From: Polyangiales bacterium
GTDB lineage: Bacteria > Myxococcota_A > Polyangia > Polyangiales > Ga0077539
DNA: 64,000 nt
NCBI GenBank assembly: GCA_046351515.1
Contig: JAXLYJ010000005.1
Coordinates: 242,892-306,891 of the forward strand
Direction of reading: 5' to 3'
The notes below the pieces were generated by a model. The model did no database searches, was not told where the DNA came from, and saw nothing but the letters and a program-made list of their open reading frames with translations. Positions 9,134 through 53,831 of the stretch are shown here, in pieces. The translations under genes were made by a program, and so were the position numbers. Each line of letters begins with the position of its first letter. The stretch's first letter is position 1.

Positions 9134-10137
9134 CGTGTCGAAGGCTCCGACGAGTTCGCGGGCAGTTGCGCGGGCGGCGGAGCGAGCTCGCGAAACACGT
9201 ACGTCACCACGCCCACATCCGGGTCGAGTTCGACGTCGACGTAGTGGGAGCGCGCCATGGATTGCAGCGCTTTCTCGGCTTCATCCAAGGTGAGCCCGAG
9301 ACCTTGAGCGGTCGAGGTGACCGTCAAGCGGCCCTTCTTCTGCGTCGCGAGGTCGAGCAAGCGCACCTGCAGTTCGGGGTCGAGGTCGACCTTTCCTCGC
9401 GCGCGTTTTCGCTGGCGAAGGAGCCAGATTCCCAGCCCGCCAGTCACGCCGGAGGCGACCGCGGCGGACGCGAGCACCGCGCCGACAGGCACCACAAAGA
9501 ACGTCACGGTCGCGAGCGCCGTCGCGAGGATCAAGCCGCTCGTCGCCACCGAGAGCGCGCCGACCGATCCAGCGTCGCCCGCGTATCGATCGCGCGCGCT
9601 CGCGCCGTCCGGATCGCGCAGCGCGAGTGACGAATCACCGCTCGGCGCTCCGCCCGGCCCGAGCTGCGGCGCGTTGGGGTGAGTCCATCCGGGCGCATAG
9701 GGAGCGGGCGCCGCGCCCACCGGCAGCACCTGTGCGGGCATCGCTGGCATCGGCTGCGGCGCGGGATAGCCTGGGTATGCGGCCATCGGGTGAGGCGCGG
9801 GCATCATGGGCATCGCGGGCATCGGCGCGGTCGTCACCGTCACGGTGACCGTCGGCTGTGGTGCCGGCATCGCTGGGACGTATCCCATGGGCGGCTGTGG
9901 CGCGTATCCATACGGGACCGCTCCCGATGGCATCACAGGAGCTCCCGCAGGATAGGCCGCCGGTGGATAGATGGCACCCGCGGGCGCTGGTGGAGCTGGC
10001 ACCAACGTTCCGTCAGGGGCGAGCATGTAGCCGGGCGGGATGGCTCCCGGACCCCAATGCGTCATTCGCGAAAGAACCTCGTGTTCGATTCTAGACTCGC
10101 CCACCGCCGAGGGCCACTCCGATGAACCTTCGCTCAC
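9130..10137 (-). CDS. Pro-rich single-pass membrane protein with conserved C-terminal cytoplasmic domain; start uncertain
   Basis: PxxP/PAPY repeats, one TM segment (LILATALATVTFFVVPVGAVLASAAV), RKRARGK stop-transfer, then a structured C-terminal domain. It overlaps the next gene by ATGA, indicating an operon. Confidence 0.45.
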   Translation of the reverse strand: MSEGSSEWPSAVGESRIEHEVLSRMTHWGPGAIPPGYMLAPDGTLVPAPPAPAGAIYPPAAYPAGAPVMPSGAVPYGYAPQPPMGYVPAMPAPQPTVTVTVTTAPMPAMPMMPAPHPMAAYPGYPAPQPMPAMPAQVLPVGAAPAPYAPGWTHPNAPQLGPGGAPSGDSSLALRDPDGASARDRYAGDAGSVGALSVATSGLILATALATVTFFVVPVGAVLASAAVASGVTGGLGIWLLRQRKRARGKVDLDPELQVRLLDLATQKKGRLTVTSTAQGLGLTLDEAEKALQSMARSHYVDVELDPDVGVVTYVFRELAPPPAQLPANSSEPSTR

Positions 10138-19941: not shown

Positions 19942-20396
19942 GAACTCCGGATCGACTCTCGATCGGGGCGCGCTCGCGAAGAAGCGCGGCGACCTCGAGT
20001 GCGGTGCCAGGAGCGTTGGTTCGTGCTCGTGCGGACCTTTGCTCGCTCAATCCCTCTGCGTCCCGTCGAGAAAGAGATCTCTCGGGGACCGTTCGTGCTG
20101 AGATGCTCCGTCGAAGCTGCGCTCAATCCAAACGCAGCTCAGGAGCCTCGCTCTGACTCATCGCGGGCGGCGCGCGGATGCTCTCCGCTGGCGCGCGAAC
20201 CACTGGCTCGCGCGCTCGCCGCCCACGCTGAGCGTGAAGGCGGATCATCGTTGTTGGTCCTTCGTTGGGAGGGGGTAAAAGATCGGTGCTCGTGCGAAAC
20301 GTGCGCGTTGCGCACACCGCGGCGAGCGGCGACGGACCTGACACTAGCCACCCTCGTCCTTCGCGCAAGGGCGCGAGGTATCGTCGCTGTCACGCA

Positions 20397-21311
20397 ATGT
20401 CCAACGATTCGCCCGAGCCTTCGCGCCCGCCGCGCACGGCGCTGATCCGCCCCGAGAACGTCCGGCGCCTCGGCGTGAAGAAGCAGCTCTTCACGGACCT
20501 GTATCACCACTTGCTGACCATCTCGTGGCCGCGCTTTCTCGTGGTGGTGCTGGCCTCGTACCTCGCGGTCAACGTCTTGTTTGCGGCGCTGTACCTGCTC
20601 GATCGCGACGCGCTCGAGGGCGGCTCGGGCAACCGCGCGCTCGACGCGTTCTTCTTCTCGGTGCAGACGATGGCGACGATCGGCTATGGAAAAATGACGC
20701 CGAAGTCATCGTTCGCCAACGCGCTCGTGACGCTCGAAGCCCTCACCGGGATGCTCTCGATGGCGATGGCGACCGGGCTTCTGTTCGCGAAGTTCTCGCG
20801 GCCCTCGGCGCGCGTGCTCTTCTCGGACACGTGCGTTGTGCAGAAGCGCGACGGCGTCAGCACGCTCGTGTTTCGCATGGTCAACGAGCGAACGACGCAG
20901 ATCGTCGAGGCGCAGGTGAGGGTGGTCTTGCTCACCGACGAGGTGACGCGCGAGGGAGACACGATCCGTCGGCTTCGCGATCTGCAGCTCACGCGATCGA
21001 CGACGCCGGCGTTTTCGCTGAGCTGGATGGTCTTGCACCCGATCACCGAGGACAGCCCGCTCTACAACCTCGACGCGGCGAAGCTCGCCGAGAAGAACGC
21101 GTCGATCTTGGTCTCGTTTATGGGGCTCGACGACTCGTTCAACGCGACGGTGCACGTGAGAAAGTTCTACACGTACGAAGAGCTGAAATTTGGCCGACGG
21201 TTCGTGGATATCCTCACGGACGGACAGGACGCGCGCGTGCTCGACGTGAGCCGAGTGCACCTCACCGAGCCCGAGTCCGAGTCCGTCGATCGCGCGTCGC
21301 CGTATCACTGA
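20397..21311 (+). CDS. Inward-rectifier-type K+ channel (KirBac family)
   Basis: Slide helix, TM1, pore helix with selectivity filter TIGYG, TM2 and a Kir-type cytoplasmic beta-rich C-terminal domain. ATG at 20397. Confidence 0.8.
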   Translation: MSNDSPEPSRPPRTALIRPENVRRLGVKKQLFTDLYHHLLTISWPRFLVVVLASYLAVNVLFAALYLLDRDALEGGSGNRALDAFFFSVQTMATIGYGKMTPKSSFANALVTLEALTGMLSMAMATGLLFAKFSRPSARVLFSDTCVVQKRDGVSTLVFRMVNERTTQIVEAQVRVVLLTDEVTREGDTIRRLRDLQLTRSTTPAFSLSWMVLHPITEDSPLYNLDAAKLAEKNASILVSFMGLDDSFNATVHVRKFYTYEELKFGRRFVDILTDGQDARVLDVSRVHLTEPESESVDRASPYH

Positions 21312-30737: not shown

Positions 30738-33263
30738 CTACTCCTTCGTCCCGTCGCCGAGCTGCTTGCTCGTCGCGCCGCCGGAGACCTTCGCGAGCAC
30801 CTCCGCCACCGACGTTCCCGCGAGCAGGCGACGCAGCACGTCCGAGACGCTCTCGCCGCCGAGGATCGCGAGCGGCGCCATGCTCTCCGCCATCTTCTCG
30901 GCCAGCGCGCGATCGCCGAACGCCTGCAGCGCCGCGATCAAATCCGGAGAGAACGCCTTGGCCTTCTCGCTCGCCGCGCGCACCTGCGCGTCCAGCTCTC
31001 GAAGGCTCCGCTCGCTCTCGGCGCGGGCCACTTCGTCCTCGAACTGCGCTCGCGCTCGCTCGCGTCCGAGCTGCGCCGCCGCGACCGCGTCGAGCAACTG
31101 CTGCAGGGCGACCTCCGCGCGATGCCGGCTCTCTCTCGTGTCCGTCTCCGCTTTGATCCGCGCGAGATCCACCTCGTGCTTGCGCGTGACCTCGCGGCCC
31201 TCGATCTCGAGCAGCTGAAGCTTCGTCGCCGCTTCGAGCCCGGCGGACTCTTGCCGCGCGGACTCGCGTGCGCGCGTCAGCTCGAGGCGCCTTCGCTCTG
31301 CGGCGACCGCGAGCGCTTGCTGAACGCTCGCGTGCTGCGCCTCGACGAGCAGCTTCGCGATGGTCTCGTCGCCGATCGAGACGCCGAGCACCTCGAGGTC
31401 GTACACGCGCATGCCGTTTTCGCTGAAACGTCGGCCGGGGCGCTTTCCGTCCTCCGCCTGCGCGCCGAGGATGATCTCGCGGATGATGCTCACGGCGTTG
31501 CCGTAGAAGTGCTCGACGCCGTGCTGCTTGACCGCGTGACGCAAGAGCGAGCGCAGGTGATCGGTCAGGAATTTCACGTAGTTTTCGACGCTGAACCACT
31601 GCGTGGGCTCGCCCTCGAAATCGACGCGGTAGCTCAGCCGCATGTGCACTCGAACGAGGTCGCTCGTCTCGGCCTCGACCAGATCGCTGACCTTGTTGTT
31701 CTTCACGCGCAGGTACGCCGTGCGCATGAGCTTGTCGTCGGTCTTGGGCGTGCTCGTCGACAGCTCCATCGCCTGCAGCGTCTCGTCGTACTCGAGCAAG
31801 AAGGTCGTGGGGCCGACCTCGACGCGACGCTTTCCTGAGCGCGATTTCACGAGGACCGCGTAGCCGGTCCACAAGTCGATCGAGACCGCTCCCTCGAAGC
31901 GGTTGTCGAGCACGATCGTCCGCGGCGGCGTGAACGTTTGATTTCGTGTGACCGCGTCGCCCACGTACGCGGCTTCGCTCTTGGCCTTCTCTGCAGCGGC
32001 GTCGGGCTTGCGAGTGGTGGCCTGGCGCGCCTCGTCGTCGATGACGAACTCGTTGCCGGCCTCCGAGCGCTTGAGCGCAGAGAGCCGCGCGTTGTAGTCG
32101 AGCGCCTCTTTGTTGCCGGGAAACAGCAGCTCGACGCTCTTGGGGTCGAGCACCTTGCGGACGATCACCTCGCGGCGCGGGTCCGGAAGAAACACGGTCG
32201 GGCCGCGCTCGAGCCGGATGTTTCCCTGCGTGCGGTCGAGCACGTACCGCGCTTCACCGGCGGGGATCGCCACGCCGTAGTGGATCTCTCGTCCTCCGTA
32301 GCGGATGAGCGCGTGCTCGGGGCGAGGGAAGTAGATCATCTGCTCGCGGCCCGTGATGAAGAGCTCGTCGCCGACCTTGTAGCTGCGGTCGTTCTCTTCG
32401 TACGGCGCGATGACCTTCACGTAGACGCCCGAGATCTCGGTGAGCTCGATCGCGCGAAACTTTCGGCTCCCGTTGCGCTCGATGAAGGTCTCGGTCGGCC
32501 GCGGAAACACCACCGCCGGCCCCTGAATGAACCGCTTGTTGCCGTCTTCATCGAGCAGGATCGTGTACTCGAGCCGCTCGAGCGTGACCGCGTCTCGGAC
32601 GTACTTTCCCTGCTCGTCCGCGACGACTTCGACGCCCGTCGGAGGGATGTAGAAGCTCACGTCCGTCCCGCGGATCACCAGGTGCTTGCCCATCGTGAGC
32701 TCGGGCACGCTCTTGCTCGGATCGAGCACGCCCTGCTCGCTTCCTTCGGCGACGGGATCGGCGCCGGGCGTGGTCTGCCGCTTGATCACGGCCTTGGCCC
32801 AGTTGGTCTTCGCCGCTTCTTCGTCGTACACGCGCACGAGCAAGTACTGGTTCGACCGGAGGCTGTGCCCAGGGACGACCTTCACCATCTGCCCGGGCCA
32901 GAGCGCGTACGAGACCGGACCGGGCGTGTTCACTTTTCGACCGACGTCGAGCTCGGGCAGGTTGTTGAGCGCGCCGGTTCGCGGATGCGACCCGTCCCTG
33001 GCCGGGTTTTTCAGCACGAGGTACCAGCCCTCGGGCGCGACCGCGAGCACGCCGATCGCTTGCTCGAGCGTCACGCGCTTGAAGCGCTTGGTGTCGTAGT
33101 CGAACACCACGGGCTGATCGGTGTTCGCGAGGCTCGTCTTGTGCGGCCCCACGTAGACGTTGATGTTTCCCTTCGTCTCGTCGGAGATGAACGCGAACTC
33201 GTTGGGCGCCAACACCAGATCGCGCTCGCGGACTCGCTCTCGACCCAGATCCCTCTCGTTCAT
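30738..33263 (-). CDS. Major vault protein (MVP) homologue
   Basis: The N-terminal region is made of repeated ~55-aa beta domains resembling MVP repeats (e.g. VGDELFITGREQMIYFPRPEHAL vs MVP [22 protein letters not shown]). The C-terminal region matches the MVP shoulder/cap-helix (VYDLEVLGVSIGDETIAKLLVEAQHASVQQAL…; KAFSPDLIAALQAFGDRALAEKMAESMAPLAILGG… vs MVP [36 protein letters not shown]). At 841 aa it is close to eukaryotic MVP length. ATG at 33263 with a GGAGGAG RBS. Confidence 0.7.
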   Translation of the reverse strand: MNERDLGRERVRERDLVLAPNEFAFISDETKGNINVYVGPHKTSLANTDQPVVFDYDTKRFKRVTLEQAIGVLAVAPEGWYLVLKNPARDGSHPRTGALNNLPELDVGRKVNTPGPVSYALWPGQMVKVVPGHSLRSNQYLLVRVYDEEAAKTNWAKAVIKRQTTPGADPVAEGSEQGVLDPSKSVPELTMGKHLVIRGTDVSFYIPPTGVEVVADEQGKYVRDAVTLERLEYTILLDEDGNKRFIQGPAVVFPRPTETFIERNGSRKFRAIELTEISGVYVKVIAPYEENDRSYKVGDELFITGREQMIYFPRPEHALIRYGGREIHYGVAIPAGEARYVLDRTQGNIRLERGPTVFLPDPRREVIVRKVLDPKSVELLFPGNKEALDYNARLSALKRSEAGNEFVIDDEARQATTRKPDAAAEKAKSEAAYVGDAVTRNQTFTPPRTIVLDNRFEGAVSIDLWTGYAVLVKSRSGKRRVEVGPTTFLLEYDETLQAMELSTSTPKTDDKLMRTAYLRVKNNKVSDLVEAETSDLVRVHMRLSYRVDFEGEPTQWFSVENYVKFLTDHLRSLLRHAVKQHGVEHFYGNAVSIIREIILGAQAEDGKRPGRRFSENGMRVYDLEVLGVSIGDETIAKLLVEAQHASVQQALAVAAERRRLELTRARESARQESAGLEAATKLQLLEIEGREVTRKHEVDLARIKAETDTRESRHRAEVALQQLLDAVAAAQLGRERARAQFEDEVARAESERSLRELDAQVRAASEKAKAFSPDLIAALQAFGDRALAEKMAESMAPLAILGGESVSDVLRRLLAGTSVAEVLAKVSGGATSKQLGDGTKE

Positions 33264-33300
33264 GATCTCGCTCCTCCAGTGCGCCTGCAGCGGCGATCGG

Positions 33301-33326
33301 TACTTAGTTGTAGAGTGTTACTAAGT
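33301..33326. promoter_or_regulatory. AT-rich inverted repeat TACTTAGT-N10-ACTAAGTA about 40 bp upstream of the MVP start; candidate operator/promoter element
   Basis: Perfect 8-bp inverted repeat (TACTTAGT / ACTAAGTA) in a ~30% GC island inside a ~70% GC region, in the MVP/OPT divergent intergenic. Confidence 0.4.
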
Positions 33327-33672
33327 CAAGGAGCGCCGCTTTCGTCCCCACGAAACGCGCGACGAACGGCGAGCTCTGATGCTCTCGTGCCGGGCGTTGG
33401 TTGTCGGCGGCGAAGTTTGCCGGCGAGCGGTCGTGGGCCTCGCCGCACGGCCGACGCTCGTGTCGCGCTGCGTCGCGATCGCGACGAGCGATGGCGGCAG
33501 GCGCTGTTCGCAGACGATGCTCGTCGGCCGTTGAACTCGAGCCCGGTTTGATACGCTCGCCGCCCTCATGCACGTAGAGAGCAGCGGGAGCGCGACAGCC
33601 GCTCCGACGAAGGCGCCCGAGGGCGTCGACCCCGAACTCCACTGGTACAAGACCGTCTATCAAGGAGACACG

Positions 33673-35484
33673 ATGCCGCAGTTCACGCTGCGCTCGTTCT
33701 TGATGGGCTCGGTGATCGGCGTGGTGATGGCCGCGTCGAACTTGTACGTGGGCTTGAAGACCGGCTGGGGATTGGGCGTCGCGATCACCGCGTGCATCTT
33801 GTCGTTCGCCGTCGGTCGCATGCTCCAAGCGGTGGGCGTGTTCAGCACGAACCTCTCGCTGCTCGAGAACAACGCGATGGCGTCGACCGCGTCGTCTGCC
33901 GGCTATTCAACGGGCGGAACGATGGTCTCGGCCATGTGCGCATACCTGCTCGTGAAGGGCTCGCACATGCCGTGGCCGCTGCTCATGGCGTGGACGTTCT
34001 TGCTCGCGGTGCTCGGGACGGTGATGGCGATCCCGATGAAGCGGCAGATGATCAACGTCGAGCAGCTGCAGTTTCCGAGCGGAACGGCCGCGGCAGAGAC
34101 GCTCCGCTCGCTCTACTCAGCGGGCGAAGAGTCCGCGAAGAAAGCGCGCTCGCTCTTCGGCGCGATGGGCCTCGGCGCGGTCGTCGCGTGGCTGCGCGAC
34201 GCGCACGCGGCGAGCGCGACCGGCGTGCTCGCGATCCTGACGAAGCTCTCGAAGATCCCCGCGACCTTCGGGATCCCCAAGCTCACGATCGCGGGGCAAC
34301 CCGCGCTGAGCTGGACGATCGGCTTCGAGGGCTCGCTGATCATGGTGGCCGCCGGCGCGATGATGGGCCTTCGAACGACCGCATCGATGCTCGTCGCTGC
34401 GCTCATCAACTACGGAGTGCTCGCGCCGAAGATCCACGCGATGGGCGGAATCACCCGGATTTCGTACCGCGGGATCGTCTCGTGGTCGCTGTGGCCTGGC
34501 GCGGCGTTGATGGTGACCTCGGGCTTGCTCACGTTCGCGTTTCAATGGCGAACGATCCTCCGCGCGTTCAGCGGCTTCGGCGCAAAGAAGCAGAAGGCAG
34601 GCGAGGGCGCGCCGTACCGCGAAGGCCAAGAAGAGACGGTGCAGGATCAGATGGCCGCCATCGAGGTTCCCAACCGCTGGTTCGCGGCGGGGATGCTCTT
34701 CGCGACGGTGGGGCTCGTCATCGTCGGTTGGTTCGGCTTCGGCATCGCGCCGTGGCTCTCGGTGCTCGCAGTGCTGCTCTCGTTTGTCCTCTCGATCGTG
34801 GCGTGCCGCGCGACGGGCGAGACCGACACGACCCCCGTCGGCGCGATGGGCAAGATCACGCAGCTCACCTACGGCGTGCTCGCGCCGGCCAACGTGACGA
34901 CCAACTTGCTGACGGCGAGCATCACCGCGGGAGCTGCTGGAAGCGCTGCAGATTTGCTCACGGATTTGAAGTCGGGCTACCTGCTCGGCGCCAACCCGCG
35001 CAAGCAGTTCCTCGCGCAGTTCTCGGGGACCTTCGTCGGGACGCTCGTGATCGTCCCGCTGTTCTATGTGCTCGTGCCCACGCCCGCGGCGCTCGGCGGC
35101 GATCGGTTTCCCGCGCCCGCCGCGCAGGTGTGGAAGGGCGTCGCCGAGGCGCTCTCCAACGGCGTTCACTCTCTGCATCCGACGGCGCGCTGGGGCATGC
35201 TCATCGGCGGGGTCATCGGCATCATTCTCCCGCTGCTCGAGCTGATGCTGCCCAAGTACAAGAAGTACCTGCCGAGCGCGATGGGCGTGGGCCTCGCCCT
35301 CGTGATCCCCGCGTGGAACTCGGTCAGCATGTTCATCGGCGCGCTGCTCGCGTACCTCTACGCCCGCGTCAACGAGAAGAACGCCGAGACGTACACGATC
35401 CCCGTCGCCTCTGGGATCATCGCCGGCGAGTCGCTGCTCGGCGTCGTCATCGCGCTCATGAGCGTCGCGCATTGGCTCGAGTAA
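33673..35484 (+). CDS. OPT-family oligopeptide transporter
   Basis: About 16 TM helices. OPT-family N-terminus …LRSFLMGSVIGVVMAASNLYVGLKTGW. ATG at 33673 with an AAGGAGA RBS. Confidence 0.8.
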   Translation: MPQFTLRSFLMGSVIGVVMAASNLYVGLKTGWGLGVAITACILSFAVGRMLQAVGVFSTNLSLLENNAMASTASSAGYSTGGTMVSAMCAYLLVKGSHMPWPLLMAWTFLLAVLGTVMAIPMKRQMINVEQLQFPSGTAAAETLRSLYSAGEESAKKARSLFGAMGLGAVVAWLRDAHAASATGVLAILTKLSKIPATFGIPKLTIAGQPALSWTIGFEGSLIMVAAGAMMGLRTTASMLVAALINYGVLAPKIHAMGGITRISYRGIVSWSLWPGAALMVTSGLLTFAFQWRTILRAFSGFGAKKQKAGEGAPYREGQEETVQDQMAAIEVPNRWFAAGMLFATVGLVIVGWFGFGIAPWLSVLAVLLSFVLSIVACRATGETDTTPVGAMGKITQLTYGVLAPANVTTNLLTASITAGAAGSAADLLTDLKSGYLLGANPRKQFLAQFSGTFVGTLVIVPLFYVLVPTPAALGGDRFPAPAAQVWKGVAEALSNGVHSLHPTARWGMLIGGVIGIILPLLELMLPKYKKYLPSAMGVGLALVIPAWNSVSMFIGALLAYLYARVNEKNAETYTIPVASGIIAGESLLGVVIALMSVAHWLE

Positions 35485-35496
35485 GAGTGCCCACGG

Positions 35497-35669
35497 ATCG
35501 CGCATCCCCGAACCACTGATTCCCGCGACGTCATGGTGGATGCTCACCGCATCAACGCATGCCGCGCCAGTGGTTCGGGGAGCTTCATCGCGCATCCCCG
35601 AACCACTGATTCCCGCGACGTCATGGTTGATGCTCACCGCATCAACGCATGCCGCGCCAGTGGTTCGGG
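35497..35669. repeat. Two tandem copies (period 89 bp) of a ~84-bp palindromic element with 13-bp terminal inverted repeats CCCCGAACCACTG…CAGTGGTTCGGGG
   Basis: Copies at 35497-35580 and 35586-35669 differ at one base (g/t). Nested inner palindromes are TGATGC…GCATCA, GACGTC and GCATGC. Confidence 0.75.
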
Positions 35670-35710
35670 GATGCGGTGGGAGCCCGCGCGTTGCTACGCT
35701 CCGCGCCCTC

Positions 35711-37258
35711 ATGCACAGCATCCCCGCGCTCGTCGGAATCCCGCTCGACTCTCTCACCGCTGAAGCGCCCGCGTACGACGCCCTCGTCGTCGTGAGCGCG
35801 AGCCCCGTGGGCGACTATCTCAGCAAGCTCGCGCTGCCCGGCGCCGCGCGCTCGGTGATCGAGTCCGTGCTCGCCGCCGATCGCTCCTTCGCGCGCGCAG
35901 CGCAGGCGCCCGCGGTGTTTCCTGCGCCCGGAGTGCCGGGTGAGCGCCTCGTGCTCGCCACGTGCAACACGCTCCGCGAGGACGTCGACGACGTTCGTGT
36001 GATCGCAGAAACCGTCACCGCGGCGATCCATCGCGCTGTCTCCGCGGGCGCTCGCAAGCCGCTCGTCACCGTCGCGACGCCGGATGAGCCCAAGTTCGCG
36101 CGCGCGCTCGACGTCGCCGCGCTCGCCGCGCTCGCGTCGCAGTGGCACGCGCTCGAGGCGCGCGAGGCCAACAAGGTCGGCCCGTGCGCGGACACCATCG
36201 CGATCGCTGGCCTCGACGCCCAGCGCGCAACGCGGCTGCGCGCGATCGAGCTCGGCCGCGCGCTCGGCAGAGACATCACGGGCACCGAGCCCGAACGCAT
36301 GGCGCCGATGCGCGCCGCGCAGCTGTGCGAGAGCTCTTTCGCGGGCACGGGCGTGCGCGTGAAGGTGCTCACCGACACGAGCGCGTACCCGCTGCTCAGC
36401 GCCGTCGCGCGCGCCTCCAACGTCGTCGAGCGTCACCGTCCGTGCGTGATCGAGCTCGAGTACGTGCCCGAAGGAGGCCGCTTCGAGCGCACGATCTACC
36501 TCGCCGGAAAGGGCCTCACCTACGACACCGGCGGCGCGGATCTGAAGGTCAACGGCGCGATGGCGGGGATGTCCCGTGACAAGGGCGGCGCCGGCGCGGT
36601 CGCCGCGTTCGTGCGCGCGTGCGCCGCGAGCAAGCTCGAGGGCGTGCGCGTCGTCGCGCTGCTCGGCATGGTGCGCAACTCGATCGGCGAAGAGTCGTTC
36701 GTGAGCGACGAGGTGATCACCTCGCACGCGGGCGTTCGCGTTCGCATCGGAAATACCGACGCAGAAGGTCGCCTCGTCCTCGCGGACCTGCTCTCGGATT
36801 TGCGCACGCGCGCCATCGCCGACGGCGGAGAGAGCGTGATCGCATCGATGGCTACACTGACTGGCCATGTCATCCGCGCCTTCGGTCCGTACGTCGGCGC
36901 GATCGAGAACAAAGCGTCTCGCGACAAGGGCGTGATCGCCGCCCTGGTCGAGTGCGGAGAGCGCTGGGGAGAGCCCTTCGAGTGGACGCGTGTCCGTCGC
37001 GAGGACTACGCGTTTTGCGCGGCAAAATCCAACGCAGAAGATTTGGTGTCCAGTAATCGACTCGCGAGCGTCGACACGATGCGAGGCCACCAGGGGCCGT
37101 TCGCGTTTCTCGACGTGGCGAGCGGGATCAAGGGCAGCGGGCTGCCGTACGTGCACCTCGATATCGGTGGAGCTGCGTTCACTCCCCTCGATTGGCAGTT
37201 CGGTCGTCCGACGAGCGCGCCGAGCGTCGCGATGCTCGCGTGGTGCGCCGGCGAGTGA
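35711..37258 (+). CDS. pepA: Leucyl aminopeptidase (M17 family)
   Basis: M17 signature NTDAEGRLVLADLL, metal ligands in …GKGLTYDTGGADLK…, and full collinearity. ATG at 35711. The upstream part of the 35540 ORF lies inside the repeat and is an artefact. Confidence 0.8.
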   Translation: MHSIPALVGIPLDSLTAEAPAYDALVVVSASPVGDYLSKLALPGAARSVIESVLAADRSFARAAQAPAVFPAPGVPGERLVLATCNTLREDVDDVRVIAETVTAAIHRAVSAGARKPLVTVATPDEPKFARALDVAALAALASQWHALEAREANKVGPCADTIAIAGLDAQRATRLRAIELGRALGRDITGTEPERMAPMRAAQLCESSFAGTGVRVKVLTDTSAYPLLSAVARASNVVERHRPCVIELEYVPEGGRFERTIYLAGKGLTYDTGGADLKVNGAMAGMSRDKGGAGAVAAFVRACAASKLEGVRVVALLGMVRNSIGEESFVSDEVITSHAGVRVRIGNTDAEGRLVLADLLSDLRTRAIADGGESVIASMATLTGHVIRAFGPYVGAIENKASRDKGVIAALVECGERWGEPFEWTRVRREDYAFCAAKSNAEDLVSSNRLASVDTMRGHQGPFAFLDVASGIKGSGLPYVHLDIGGAAFTPLDWQFGRPTSAPSVAMLAWCAGE

Positions 37259-37280: not shown

Positions 37281-37994
37281 ATGAAGCTCACAGCAGTCAT
37301 GGTGTTCGTCGCGATGGGGCTGCGCGTCTGCGGACAGTCGCCGCGACAGCCGACGGTCACCGAAGCTCCGCGCACTGAGCAAGTCCCCGCTGGGGCGACG
37401 ATGGGCGTCGCGGTCTCGGCCGCGCTCACCACCAACGTCTCTGCGCAGCCAGACGGAACGCTCATCGCTGAAGTTCGCGACCCTGCGGGCGAGCCCGTTC
37501 GCGCGCACGCGATCACCGTCGAGATCCGTCGCCCCGACGAAGATCCGGTCCCCGTCGTGATGACCTACGACGAGCCGCAGCACCGCTACGTCGGTCACAT
37601 CGCTGGCGTCAACGCGGGCAGCTATCCCGTGCAAGTCACCGTGCAAGCGACGCCCACCGCGCAGCCGGTCGAGATCGTCTCGCCTGCGATCACCGTGGTG
37701 ACGCCCACCGTCGCAGTGGTCGCGCCCACGACGACCGTTGTCGCGCCCACGACGACGGTCGTCGCCCCCACGACCACCGTGGTCGCGCCGCGCGTCGAAG
37801 TCGAGCGGCCTGCGGTGGCGGTCGTCGCGCCGTCCGTTCAAGTGACGGTCCCGTCGGTGGTCGTCACGCCGGTGGTGCCCGGAGTCGTCGTCGTCGGAGA
37901 TGACGATCACCACGATCACGGACGGCACCGCGGACACTGGCGCGGGCACGGTCGCGGTCGCGGTCGCGGCGTGTTCTTCGGCGTATTTCACTGA
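37281..37994 (+). CDS. Secreted repetitive protein with (VVAPTTT)n repeats and His/Arg/Gly-rich C-terminus
   Basis: Signal peptide MKLTAVMVFVAMGLRVCG. Three to four tandem 21-bp repeats at 37717-37790. C-terminal DDHHDHGRHRGHWRGHGRGRGRG. Confidence 0.45.
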   Translation: MKLTAVMVFVAMGLRVCGQSPRQPTVTEAPRTEQVPAGATMGVAVSAALTTNVSAQPDGTLIAEVRDPAGEPVRAHAITVEIRRPDEDPVPVVMTYDEPQHRYVGHIAGVNAGSYPVQVTVQATPTAQPVEIVSPAITVVTPTVAVVAPTTTVVAPTTTVVAPTTTVVAPRVEVERPAVAVVAPSVQVTVPSVVVTPVVPGVVVVGDDDHHDHGRHRGHWRGHGRGRGRGVFFGVFH

Positions 37995-49929: not shown

Positions 49930-52263
49930 ATGCTTGCGCTCTGGGGTCGCTCGATCCACCGATACCGAACACTGGTGCTCGTCCTGAGCGCGATCGTCCT
50001 CGCGCTCTCGGTCTTCGTGCTCTCGCGCGGGGGCGTGCTCGCGCCAGCGAACTTTCCGACGACCGAAGCCGATCGCGGCCAGGCGGTGCTCGAGCGCGAG
50101 CTCGGACGCCCCGGTCCGTCTTCGTTTCTGGTGATCGCGCGAAGCTCTCGCGCGACGGTCGACGACGAAGGCTTTCGCACAGCGCTCGATCGCACGCTCG
50201 CGCCGCTGCGCAACGATCGGCGGATCACGCAAATGGTCCTGCCGTACGACCTGTCTCCGACGGTCGCGGCGATCCTGCGCTCGCGCGACGATCGCGCGCT
50301 CGTCGTTCAGTGCACGGTCCGCGGTGACATCCGTGAGGCGCAGCGCACGTATCGAGAGCTGCGCGCGCGCGTGCGGCCCGAGCCCGGCGTCGAGCTCACG
50401 TACACAGGAAATCTCCCGTACAAAGAGGACCTCGACCGCACGCTCGAGCGCGATCTGCTCAAGGGTGAGCTCGTCTCCGCGCCGCTCGCCCTGCTGGTGT
50501 TGCTGCTCGTGTTCGGCTCGGTCGCCGCTGCTTCGCTGCCCGTCGGCGTCGGAGGGCTCGCCGTCGTCGCCGGAATGGCGGGGGTGTTCCTCACCTCCCG
50601 AACGATGGACGTCACGCAGTACAGCTTGAACGTCACGTCGCTCGTCGGGCTCGGCGTCGCGATCGACTACGCCTTGTTCATCGTCAATCGCTTTCGCGAT
50701 GAGCTCGCCGCGGGACACGCCACAGACGAAGCCCTCTCGCGCACGCTCGCCACCGCGGGCCGCGCCGTTGCGTTCTCGGGCGTCGCTGTCGCCATCGGAA
50801 TGTCGGGGCTGCTCTTCTACCGCGGCACCTTCCTCGCCTCGATGGGCGTCGCCGGCGCCCTGGTCGTCGGGCTCGCCGTGCTCTTCGCCCTCACGTTTCT
50901 GCCGGCGCTGCTCTCGCTGCTCGGCCCGCGCATCAACGCGTTGCAGCTCGTGAAGACCCGCAAGGACTCGAGCGACGCAGGCGGCTTCTGGCGGCGCATC
51001 GCGCGCTGGGTCATGCGACGGCCGATCACCGTGCTCGTTCCGACGCTCGCGTTGACGATCCTCGCGGGCGCGCCGTTTCTTCGAATGCAGATGGCCGCGG
51101 CGAGCGTCACCGTCCTGCCGCCGCGCGTCGAGGCGAGGCGAGGGTACGACACGCTTCAGCGTGATTTTCCTGACTTGGCCGCGAACCGCGTGACCGTCGT
51201 CGTTCGGTTGCCCGAAGGACAGAGCGCGCTCGACCCCGATCGCATCCGCGCGATGCACGCGTACTCGCGCCGCATTGCGCAGATCGCTGGCGTCCGCCGC
51301 GTCGAGAGCTACGTCGACCTCGACCCCACGCTCGACGCCGACGGATACGTCAACGTCTACGGCTTGCCCGAGATGTTTCGCCCGACCTTGCTCGAAGAGG
51401 CGCGCAAGTACATCTCGACCGATCGCGTCATCACGTTCAGCGCGATCACGCACGGCGACTCGCACTCGGACAACGCGCGCGCCGTCGTTCGCGCGCTGCG
51501 CGCGATGCGGCCGTCGGGCCCAGGCGAGGCGTTCGTCACGGGCCCCACCGCGGTCGACGTCGACACCACCGCGTACATCATCGCCAAGAGCCCCGCCGCC
51601 ATCGGCTTCGTGATGGTGATGACCGCGCTCGTCCTGTTCGTCCTGCTCGGCTCCGTCGTCCTTCCGATCAAAGCCGTCTTGATGAACCTGCTCAGCTTGA
51701 GCGCGAGCTTCGGCGCGCTCGTCTGGATCTTCGAGGACGGCCACCTGCGAAACGTCCTGCACTTCGAGCCGCAGCCGGTCGAGCCGGTGCTGCCCGTGGT
51801 CCTCTTCTGCGCGGTCTTCGGGCTCTCGATGGACTACGAGGTGCTGATGCTCACGCGGATGCAAGAGGAGTATCTGCGCACGCGCGACAACACCCGCGCC
51901 GTCGCCGAAGGCCTCGAGCGCTCAGCGCGCCTCGTCACCAGCGCGGCGGCCATCATGGTGGCCGTGTTCAGCGCCTTCGCCCTGGCCGAGGTCGTCATCC
52001 TCAAGGCCGTCGGCGTCGGTATGGCGCTCGCCGTCGCCCTCGACGCCACCATCGTTCGAGTGCTGATCGTCCCGGCGACCATGCGACTGTTCGGCGACTT
52101 GAATTGGTGGGCGCCGGCCCCGCTCGCGAAGCTCTACCACGCGCTCAAGCTCGGACACGCTGAGGTCGAAGCGCCCGCTTCTGCGGTCGACGATCACGAC
52201 GATGACGAGTCGGGACCGCACGCCAGGCCTCCGACCACGCCCGAGCCGCAGCCGTCGAAGTGA
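49930..52263 (+). CDS. MMPL/RND-superfamily membrane exporter
   Basis: Two 6-TM bundles, each followed by a periplasmic domain. Sterol-sensing-like regions match the MMPL family. Confidence 0.8.
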   Translation: MLALWGRSIHRYRTLVLVLSAIVLALSVFVLSRGGVLAPANFPTTEADRGQAVLERELGRPGPSSFLVIARSSRATVDDEGFRTALDRTLAPLRNDRRITQMVLPYDLSPTVAAILRSRDDRALVVQCTVRGDIREAQRTYRELRARVRPEPGVELTYTGNLPYKEDLDRTLERDLLKGELVSAPLALLVLLLVFGSVAAASLPVGVGGLAVVAGMAGVFLTSRTMDVTQYSLNVTSLVGLGVAIDYALFIVNRFRDELAAGHATDEALSRTLATAGRAVAFSGVAVAIGMSGLLFYRGTFLASMGVAGALVVGLAVLFALTFLPALLSLLGPRINALQLVKTRKDSSDAGGFWRRIARWVMRRPITVLVPTLALTILAGAPFLRMQMAAASVTVLPPRVEARRGYDTLQRDFPDLAANRVTVVVRLPEGQSALDPDRIRAMHAYSRRIAQIAGVRRVESYVDLDPTLDADGYVNVYGLPEMFRPTLLEEARKYISTDRVITFSAITHGDSHSDNARAVVRALRAMRPSGPGEAFVTGPTAVDVDTTAYIIAKSPAAIGFVMVMTALVLFVLLGSVVLPIKAVLMNLLSLSASFGALVWIFEDGHLRNVLHFEPQPVEPVLPVVLFCAVFGLSMDYEVLMLTRMQEEYLRTRDNTRAVAEGLERSARLVTSAAAIMVAVFSAFALAEVVILKAVGVGMALAVALDATIVRVLIVPATMRLFGDLNWWAPAPLAKLYHALKLGHAEVEAPASAVDDHDDDESGPHARPPTTPEPQPSK

Positions 52264-52346
52264 CGTTGCACCGCATCCCTGATCCTCTGGCGCGGCACTG
52301 CACCCACAGATCGATGCTTCCTGCGTCGAGCGTGACGTCGCGGGAG

Positions 52347-53831
52347 TCAGAGGAGCAGGGATCCGCTCGAGCGGCCGAGCGCGCGGCCGAGCCTGCGCGC
52401 GGCCTCGCGGAGCTTGCTCGGTGAATTGCCGGCGAACCCGATGCGTACGAACGGGCGATCCCGGCCGTCGAAGCACATCAGCCGCGTGCGTTGAACGAAC
52501 ACCCCCTCGCGCATCGCCGCGTCGCACAGCGCGTCGCAGCCCCTCGCGTCGGTGATCTTCGCCCACAGCGCCATCCCGCCGCGCGTCACGTCGAACTGAA
52601 GCCGATCGCCGGCGTGCGCCTCGAGCGCCGCGGCGAGCGCGTCTCTTCGCTCGAGGTACGCGCTTCGCGCCTTGCGGGCGTGCCGTGCGACGACGCCGTC
52701 CTCGATGAGCTCGGCGAGCGCGGCTTCGACCGCGAGATCTCCCTGGCGATCGACGTACATTCGTCGCGCGGCGAGGTGCTGCACGAGCGCCGCGGGACCG
52801 ACGAGAAAGCCGGTCCGAAGCCCTGGCGCCAGCAGCTTCGAGAGCGTCGCGATGTACACGACGAGCCCGTCGCTGTCCGCGCTCGCGAGCGGGAGCACGG
52901 GGCGCCCCTCGTAGTGAAACTCGTGGTCGTAGTCGTCCTCGATCACCGCGAGCTTGTGCTTCCTCGCGAGCGCGAGCAGCGCCACGCGCCGCGGCGCCGA
53001 GAGCGTGACCGTCGAGGGATATTGGTGGTGCGGAGTCACGTACACCGCTCGCACCATCTGTCGCTCGCACAGCGCTTCGAGCGCGCTGACGTCGATCCCG
53101 TGCGAATCGACGGGGATCGGGACCAGCGTCGCGCCCGCCGCGCGAAACGCGGCCCACGCCGGCGCATATCCCATGCTCTCGACCGCGATCGTGCCGCCGT
53201 CGGAGAACAGCGCTCGGGCGACGAGGTCGAGCGCCTGTTGGCTTCCACGAGTGACGAGGATGTTCTCGGGCTTCGCGGCGAGCCCGCGCAGCGACGAGGT
53301 CATCGCGGCGAGCGCAGTGCGCAGCGAGGGGTGCCCGTACGGCGTCGCGTAGTCGAGCAGCTGAGTGCGCTTCTGTCGCAGCGCCCTGCGATGAGCGCGC
53401 GCGAACGCCTCTACCGGAAACAGCTCGAGCTCGGGCATCCCTCCGTACAGCGCGATCACCTTGTCGGGCGTCGTGCGCTCGATCAGCGGCGGCGCCGCGC
53501 CCAGCGAAAATCCGGGCCGCTCAGGGATCTGCTCGCGCTGCCCCATCTTCGCGAGGCGCTTGGGCGCTTGCTCGGGCATCGCCTTCGCGACCGTGGTCGA
53601 GCGCGCGGACTCGGTCTCGATCCACCCTTCGGCGCGCAGCGCTTCGTACGCCGCGAGCACGGTGTTGCGGTGCACGCCGAGCCGGTCAGCGAGGGTCCTC
53701 GATCCTGGCAGCGCGGCGCCGGGCGCGAGCCTTCCTCGGCGAACGTCGCGCACGATCGCGTCGGCGATGCGCGCAGCGAGCGGCCTCGCGCTGTCCTCAT
53801 CGAGCGCGATCGTCAGGGACCATTTCGTCAT
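52347..53831 (-). CDS. MocR/GntR-family transcriptional regulator with aminotransferase (PLP) domain
   Basis: N-terminal GntR wHTH (LPGSRTLADRLGVHRNTVLAAYEALRAEGWI) plus a C-terminal class-I aminotransferase fold. Confidence 0.8.
   Translation of the reverse strand: MTKWSLTIALDEDSARPLAARIADAIVRDVRRGRLAPGAALPGSRTLADRLGVHRNTVLAAYEALRAEGWIETESARSTTVAKAMPEQAPKRLAKMGQREQIPERPGFSLGAAPPLIERTTPDKVIALYGGMPELELFPVEAFARAHRRALRQKRTQLLDYATPYGHPSLRTALAAMTSSLRGLAAKPENILVTRGSQQALDLVARALFSDGGTIAVESMGYAPAWAAFRAAGATLVPIPVDSHGIDVSALEALCERQMVRAVYVTPHHQYPSTVTLSAPRRVALLALARKHKLAVIEDDYDHEFHYEGRPVLPLASADSDGLVVYIATLSKLLAPGLRTGFLVGPAALVQHLAARRMYVDRQGDLAVEAALAELIEDGVVARHARKARSAYLERRDALAAALEAHAGDRLQFDVTRGGMALWAKITDARGCDALCDAAMREGVFVQRTRLMCFDGRDRPFVRIGFAGNSPSKLREAARRLGRALGRSSGSLLL

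Follow-up and report, generated by a model that had tools for sequence, protein, structure and literature searches.

Two near-identical palindromic units, W1 and W2, lie head to tail between the genes of an OPT oligopeptide transporter and the leucyl aminopeptidase PepA in the 64-kb stretch of DNA analysed here (the window). On balance we consider it probable that they belong to a family of non-autonomous, REPIN-like mobile hairpins, which are palindromic, non-coding and about 90–100 nt long. The family is previously undescribed, and its hosts are uncultured Polyangiales-type Myxococcota. Its members have in common a covarying hairpin, and the family displays two lineage-specific insertions, recurrent tandem pairs, shared subfamilies and no gene-specific association. 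The original prediction had given first place to a REP/MITE-like mobile miniature element, and this choice is supported by a third copy in the window (W3), by copies in other assemblies and by empty sites in relatives. Of its alternatives, a structured RNA or an attenuator, the latter is disfavoured by the unrelated neighbouring genes and by orthologous sites that lack the element; a more general role at the RNA level is possible.

Copies of the element in the window

The features of the two loci are as follows.

33568–35484, plus strand: OPT oligopeptide transporter gene, upstream of W1 and W2
35497–35678, plus strand: 182-nt block missing from the orthologous OPT–pepA spacer of relatives
35497–35581, plus strand: W1, 85-nt repeated segment; arms 35505–35518 and 35568–35581
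35516–35533 and 35560–35570, plus strand: W1 core boxes, 5′ box CTGATTCCCGCGACGTCA and 3′ box TGCCGCGCCAG
35582–35586, plus strand: linker GCTTC between the tandem copies
35587–35678, plus strand: W2; repeated segment 35587–35671
35591–35608 and 35658–35675, plus strand: complete outer stem of W2, 18 bp
35606–35623 and 35650–35660, plus strand: W2 core boxes
35677–35678, plus strand: 3′ tail GT of W2, end of the inserted block
35711–37258, plus strand: pepA, M17 leucyl aminopeptidase of 515 aa, downstream of W1 and W2
49930–52263, plus strand: MMPL transporter gene, convergent to MocR
52264–52373, minus strand: 110-nt block between the MocR and MMPL stops, standing where the ~90%-identical relative has 9 nt
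52272–52365, minus strand: W3; core boxes 52350–52333 and 52297–52287
52349–52347, minus strand: TGA of the CTGA box in W3, the stop codon of MocR
52347–53831, minus strand: MocR-type GntR/aminotransferase gene; final 7 codons and stop from the W3 insertion

W1 and W2 are direct copies of 85 nt each, identical at 84 of 85 positions, and the sole mismatch is G at 35538 against T at 35628. Their start-to-start period is 90 nt, and the 5-nt linker between them is unrepeated. The original prediction gave the single mismatch correctly, whereas its 84-bp unit and 89-bp period are each one nucleotide too short. It also placed both copies correctly within a 226-bp spacer (35485–35710, with the OPT stop at 35484), and its 13-bp perfect inverted repeats, CCCCGAACCACTG and CAGTGGTTCGGGG, match exactly and are longer still, reaching 14 nt in W1 and 18 nt in W2 (CGCATCCCCGAACCACTG and CAGTGGTTCGGGGATGCG). 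The window holds four exact occurrences of the arm 13-mer, where chance alone predicts 0.03. The long bulged hairpin proposed for each unit was confirmed by folding: a single unit has an energy of −45.2 kcal/mol as RNA (z = −5.0) and a z score of −7 to −8 with DNA parameters, and the fold of the whole spacer has a z score of −8.1.

The start of pepA is assigned to ATG 35711 because the closest homologues are mostly 515 aa in length. The open reading frame 35540–37258 therefore carries a false N-terminal extension of 57 codons through W1 and W2, an artefact that had likewise been foreseen. Directly 5′ of the assigned start, the block CGCGCGTTG(C/A)TAC(G/T)CTC (35683–35710) is near-invariant across the aligned relatives, and the W1/W2 insertion lies directly 5′ of this block, a candidate for the promoter, the leader or the ribosome-binding region of pepA. 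Downstream of pepA, in a hypothetical-gene region, there is an imperfect inverted repeat (37716–37777; 28 nt, 79% complementary, 6 nt apart). On the other side, the neighbour of OPT (30738–33317, minus strand) encodes an 859-aa protein with matches to the Major Vault Protein shoulder (PF11978), Vault_3 and Band_7. A vault-like protein is unusual for a bacterium, and this gene is kept beside OPT in every relative examined.

W3 is a diverged third copy, which lies 17 kb from W1 and W2 between the convergent MMPL and MocR genes. Both nhmmer with a one-unit query and the covariance model R1 locate it at 52267–52371 (minus strand), and R1 scores it at 78 bits. Its outer stem differs from that of W1 and W2 at several positions, with both arms altered in a compensatory manner; the two boxes TCCCGCGACGTCA and TGCCGCGCCAG are kept unchanged, and the apical part contains 9 nt extra. 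In comparison with its 487-aa orthologues, MocR has gained seven C-terminal codons and a new stop from W3 (52347–52373, minus strand).

Empty orthologous sites in relatives

We compared both loci with the orthologous sites of related genomes. The OPT–pepA spacer measures 42 bp in L001, 43 bp in L002 and L003, and 52 bp in L004, in which PepA is 96, 85 and 87% identical, respectively. The convergent MocR and MMPL stops are only 3 bp apart in L054 (MocR 93% identical) and 6 bp apart in L055 (78%). BLAST break points define the inserted blocks as 35497–35678 (182 nt) and 52264–52373 (110 nt replacing 9 nt), the former flanked in the alignment with relatives by CCCACGG and (G)GAGCCCGCGCGTTGC. At the DNA level, L001 and L054 agree with the window at about 90% of positions in the flanks, and gene order round both loci is that of conserved core chromosome in the relatives without the element. 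Since both sites are empty in the ~90%-identical and in more distant relatives, the blocks are insertions in this lineage; gain in the window lineage is the parsimonious reading because the nested outgroups are all empty. The sequence comparison thus indicates that the element entered two tiny intergenic spacers after the split from relatives of ~90% nucleotide identity. The OPT–pepA copy later became, or arrived as, a head-to-tail dimer, and with one difference in 85 positions between W1 and W2 this dimer must be much younger than the species split.

A comparison of filled and empty sites gave no convincing target-site duplication: only GG stands on both sides at OPT–pepA and none is seen at MocR/MMPL, in flanks that are only ~90% identical, so that a short duplication could be blurred. 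A more distant relative (L053, JAEUKI01; PepA 74% identical) has a different 160-bp insert in its OPT–pepA spacer (9841–10000). This insert forms a long hairpin of its own, with the arms CACGCCAGCGTTGAACGTCT... and ...AGACGAGCGTTGGCGTG, and is not recognized by model R1. The OPT–pepA spacer seems to collect hairpin elements repeatedly.

These comparisons also bear on a plainer account of the tandem pair, in which a palindrome that arose by chance was simply duplicated on the spot and means nothing further. Such an event would fit the adjacency and 99% identity of W1 and W2, but we give it practically no credence. The original prediction had reserved this outcome for an element unique to the locus; W3, 17 kb away, and copies in at least five other assemblies refute it. 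In addition, the relatives lack the entire 182-nt block, which is more than one unit. The 5 nt that follow W1 (GCTTC) and W2 (TGCGG) are wholly different, so the pair is not a plain slipped duplication.

Common fold and distribution of the family

Alignment of nine copies (W1, W2, W3 and copies from other assemblies) with RNAalifold gave one common fold, and each copy folded alone gives the same fold. The outer stem, P1, has 14–18 bp and varies in sequence among the copies, although it is always closed by CUG/CAG. A 6-nt 5′ bulge, AYYCCC, follows with no unpaired partner on the 3′ side. In P2, GCG-A-CG-U-CA(Y)G pairs with C(R)UG-C-CG-CGC, leaving a bulged A and a U·C mismatch, and this helix is invariant save for one covarying pair. 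P3 is an apical hairpin of 8–9 bp with a 5-nt loop and variable sequence, whose 3′ side contains an extra 9 nt (TGTGGG) in W3 and L057. The asymmetric core CTGAYYCCCGCGACGTCA ... TGCCGCGCCAG thus hardly varies among the nine copies, whereas the outer and apical stems change by compensation. Pair counts show 91–95% of cells paired, and the paired fraction collapses to 24–46% in slid registers. The covariance check proposed with the original prediction therefore turned out in favour of the hairpin, with double (compensatory) changes at 8 pairs and an observed covariation score that is reached in 0 of 500 shuffles. Both G·U pairs, which would favour the given strand, and A·C mismatches, which would favour the opposite strand, are few and roughly balanced; RNA, single-stranded DNA and a double-stranded DNA palindrome are therefore indistinguishable by this measure.

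The core, with its bulged A and U·C mismatch, is held between freely covarying stems. A tentative reading, which we think rather unlikely as it stands, is that the AYYCCC bulge and the GCGACGUCA/UGCCGC helix form a docking module for a dedicated protein on the folded single strand. If true, this would mean a new pair of hairpin element and enzyme in Polyangia, unlike REP–RAYT and DDE-driven MITEs, or alternatively an RNA motif of a new kind, spread by insertion and active at mRNA 3′ ends.

Altogether the family numbers 11 known copies, spread over 9 loci and 6 assemblies with that of the window among them, and at least five Polyangiales/'Myxococcales' assemblies besides that of the window contain copies. 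Wherever a host is labelled taxonomically, it is a myxobacterium in a broad sense. A strict core-box pattern was run against a genome collection with one genome per species (~185,000 species genomes) and returned 44 stretches (45 pattern matches), of which 40 stretches (41 matches) were rejected as chance matches in G+C-rich coding DNA. Among these, L022 and L029 are from Myxococcus and lie inside coding DNA; no Myxococcus genome fits the core pattern. The strict pattern is present in only two of the ~185,000 species genomes. The 'Myxococcales' metagenome-assembled genome (MAG) JAAFIF01 has a single copy, L037, and a head-to-tail pair, L039 (L039a–b, period 93 nt), whose repeated unit also includes bases from the flanks and the upstream gene's end. 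The deltaproteobacterial MAG LNEO01 has one copy, L024. When three P2 base pairs were relaxed in a metagenome scan, one real locus was recovered, L052, with the same sequence as L024, and covariation in P2 was not found in that scan. The viral, plasmid and phage collections scanned for the element gave no matches, and model R1 found no further copies in the ~250 kb of sequence examined. A 23-bit R1 match, L050, was rejected because its stems are unpaired. The copy at L052 (LNFM01/LNEO01) is situated within a stretch of about 1 kb (26–340 and 500–1500) that has a G+C content of 58–60% compared with ~70% and no convincing gene, and ~500 bp from the copy there is a truncated rve_3 transposase fragment that is not contiguous with the element.

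Two forward frames are always open in the element, at 35486–35710 (plus strand) of the window as in all other family members, and the protein databases were therefore searched with translated-element profiles. Among 1.84 billion protein representatives there were only three real hits. By way of phantom ORFs, the profile searches led to copies at L056 10244–10339 (99.7 bits) and at L057 404–508 (58.5 bits, with the core variant CTGATCCTCGCGACGTCA) and to two loci of the Polyangiales MAG U0269, which are known at the protein level only. Since such core variants exist, the strict pattern undercounts copies; with it, three copies at two loci are seen in all of JAAFIF01, and the 64 kb of the window likewise hold three copies at two loci. 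P1 is almost identical in W3 and L056, down to a C·U mismatch found in both, and W3 and L057 have the 9-nt insert in common. Subfamilies common to different genomes at different loci are as descent from master copies would produce.

The open frames invite a different explanation, in which the unit is a translated, MIRU- or RPE-like in-frame repeat that overlaps the ends of adjacent genes and is accepted or exploited as coding sequence. Periods of 90 and 93 nt in the tandem pairs are multiples of three, as is the length of the 9-nt insert of W3 and L057; the last seven codons and stop of MocR are supplied by W3, the gene upstream of L039 ends in ...RRCE*, the same as the unit, and ORFs that are phantom or extended have been annotated across copies in public records (P0241, P0242, P0243, P0244 and P0246). 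However, open frames are common at 68% G+C, the substitutions obey base pairing and not codon logic, the pepA homologues start at 35711 and the called ORFs have no Pfam domains. We therefore judge this explanation to be quite improbable.

The genes beside the copies are unrelated: OPT and M17 peptidase, MMPL and MocR, a hypothetical gene and GST, a CpxP-like gene and an OmpR regulator, Dus and a metallophosphatase, a hypothetical gene and an IS (rve_3) fragment, and a divergent gene pair (L057). In the four informative co-directional contexts (W1/W2, L039, L037 and L056) the element is co-oriented with the genes in all four, which is suggestive only, but hints at selection at the RNA level; the U0269 copies P0241 and P0246 are apparently antisense to called ORFs. 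No promoter was found in the sigma-70 scan and no terminator in the U-tract scan, there being no T-run after any copy. Rfam 15 returned no family at the gathering threshold and only generic miRNA-hairpin matches far below it. An inspection by eye for hammerhead or other ribozyme cores, for attC boxes and for sigma-54 spacing gave no fit.

These observations weigh on the strongest rival of a mobile hairpin, namely a structured RNA motif with a cellular function, such as a 3′-end or intercistronic stabilizer, a processing site, a terminator without a U-tract or a protein-binding hairpin. Here the invariant core would be a contact surface for a protein or ligand, and the motif would be gained at new loci where it is useful. 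Covariation in P1 and P3 round an invariant asymmetric bulge and P2, the match of orientation with the flanking genes in 4/4 co-directional contexts, the very stable folds (z of −5 to −8) and the position of W3 exactly between two convergent stops, where a bidirectional 3′ hairpin would help, all speak for such a role. On the other hand, the orthologous sites are empty in every relative examined, the neighbour genes are unrelated, L057 lies between divergent genes, P0241 and P0246 are apparently antisense, the G·U and A·C counts have no strand preference, and there is no U-tract, promoter or Rfam family. We regard a cellular RNA function as possible but the less likely reading. The two are not exclusive, and REP-type elements affect mRNA once inserted.

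The genes of the window, among them those for ribosomal proteins, Pth, kinases and transporters, are those of ordinary core chromosome, and one encodes a KirBac-like inward-rectifier potassium channel (20238–21311, plus strand; IRK_C, Ion_trans_2). The window contains no IS, and a Pfam search of the 64-kb window and ~60 kb of copy-bearing loci for a transposase, RAYT/Y1 or integrase returned none, only housekeeping genes and one rve_3 fragment. This setting is relevant to an attC-like site, a folded-single-strand substrate of an integron-type tyrosine recombinase for which the flanking genes would be cassettes. A variable-sequence hairpin whose terminal structure also varies, and which has extrahelical bases and an unpaired bulge, would suit such a site, as would the position just after genes and the GAAC/GTTC in the outer stem of many copies. 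However, GTT/AAC is absent from W3 and L056 and incomplete in L057 (GTT missing), both loci are syntenic core chromosome in relatives without the element, and there is no integrase in the window. An attC-like site is accordingly very improbable.

Relation to known repeats and significance

REPINs are REP doublets that form a hairpin and are mobilized by RAYT Y1 transposases (Bertels & Rainey, 2011; PMC3116915). The REPIN is an extragenic palindromic unit of ~100 nt with two conserved inverted segments and a spacer that is free to vary as long as it pairs; the hairpin shows compensatory changes, and REPIN tandem clusters consist of near-identical units including short flanks with a short unrepeated stretch between them (PMC3116915). 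The present element is similar in being extragenic and palindromic, with ~70–110 nt, a long hairpin, two conserved inverted segments and compensatory changes in the spacer. It likewise has no coding capacity and no obvious target duplication, is present or absent between related genomes, and forms ordered tandems of near-identical units (W1–W2 with period 90; L039a–b with period 93 and repeated flanks). The differences are also distinct. Nunvar et al. reportedly defined the REP in 2010 as a short imperfect palindrome preceded by a conserved GTAG-type tetranucleotide. The halves of our element are not REP palindromes and contain only the 6-bp palindrome GACGTC, and the 5′ flanks of nine copies have no common tetranucleotide and none of GTAG type. 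Conservation is confined to an asymmetric inner part (6-nt bulge, bulged A and U·C mismatch), inside a variable outer stem. REP/REPIN–RAYT systems have tens to hundreds of copies per genome; only a handful are seen here, in counts that come from 64 kb of the window genome and from a pattern that undercounts. A cognate single-copy RAYT flanked by copies, also typical of these systems, was found neither in the window nor in the ~60 kb of copy-bearing loci. The host clade, Polyangiales-type Myxococcota, differs as well.

MITEs such as Correia/NEMIS, ERIC, RUP and Nezha are similarly small, non-coding and intergenic with terminal inverted repeats, and the likeness extends to co-transcription into mRNA hairpins and to insertion polymorphism between relatives. 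The terminal inverted repeats of MITEs are conserved within a family and are the binding sites of the transposase. In contrast, the arms of our element are perfect within a copy and differ between copies by compensatory changes, and there is no convincing target-site duplication beyond a possible GG; we know of no parent IS with matching ends. As in attC sites, the element would work through a folded single strand that has extrahelical bases and a terminal structure that varies, and the sequence is poorly conserved outside small boxes, but the element has no GTTRRRY/RYYYAAC core, cassette array or nearby integrase. It differs from gene-specific cis-regulatory RNAs in that no gene class recurs beside it and orthologous spacers are empty, and from intrinsic terminators in that no U-tract follows the hairpin. 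MIRUs and RPEs are units of 46–150 nt between or within genes, sometimes in tandem, with lengths that fit reading frames and ends that overlap stop or start codons; MIRUs are not long hairpins and RPEs sit inside genes. The element resembles them in size, tandem copies, frame-compatible length and ends that overlap stop or start codons, and differs in showing no evidence of translation. In M. xanthus, Fujitani, Komano and Inouye are said to have described an 87-bp repeat (J Bacteriol, 1991). Literature searches on REPs, MITEs and other repeats of myxobacteria returned nothing about the W1/W2 family. The element is not established as a REP/REPIN, a MITE or an attC site: termini that differ between copies and, less firmly, the lack of a convincing target duplication speak against MITEs, and core boxes and context against attC. 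The element is nearer to REPIN or MITE-type 'junk' repeats, which it resembles more than a gene regulator.

For a mobile hairpin, we propose that an enzyme acting in trans, encoded elsewhere in the genome, would recognize the folded single strand and set copies of the element down at further extragenic positions. Its recognition site would most naturally be the invariant asymmetric core, and the stems would need only to pair and could drift by compensatory change. The enzyme would most likely be an HUH/Y1-type or other transposase that leaves no target duplication, since without such a duplication an HUH-type or similar mechanism fits better than DDE. Tandem pairs may arise by secondary duplication or by insertion beside an existing copy. 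Once transcribed, the element would form a very stable hairpin within or after mRNAs, with possible consequences for mRNA ends or for OPT–pepA coupling as a side effect and not as the reason for the element. Several findings count against mobility: there is no partner transposase, RAYT or integrase in the window or beside the copies examined, neither locus has a convincing target-site duplication, few copies are seen, and orientation follows the genes in 4/4 contexts. The outermost sequence varies round an invariant internal core, the reverse of typical MITEs, which gives the element the look of a structured RNA too.

Much work has been done on small palindromic repeats of Gammaproteobacteria and Cyanobacteria, but hardly any on those in the large genomes of Myxococcota. 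For this clade, in which palindromic intergenic repeats are essentially undescribed, the element adds a new family and an unusual variant of the theme. With two datable insertions and empty sites in sister genomes, the family lends itself well to study. Gene callers are misled by the elements into false N-terminal extensions and phantom ORFs, and one element, W3, has given a real gene, MocR, an altered C-terminus; the elements may also cause transcripts such as OPT–pepA to be uncoupled or stabilized. Finally, the compact invariant core must be recognized by something, and model R1 is ready for mining complete genomes. The partner enzyme, once found, could reveal a new system of single-strand transposition or recombination.
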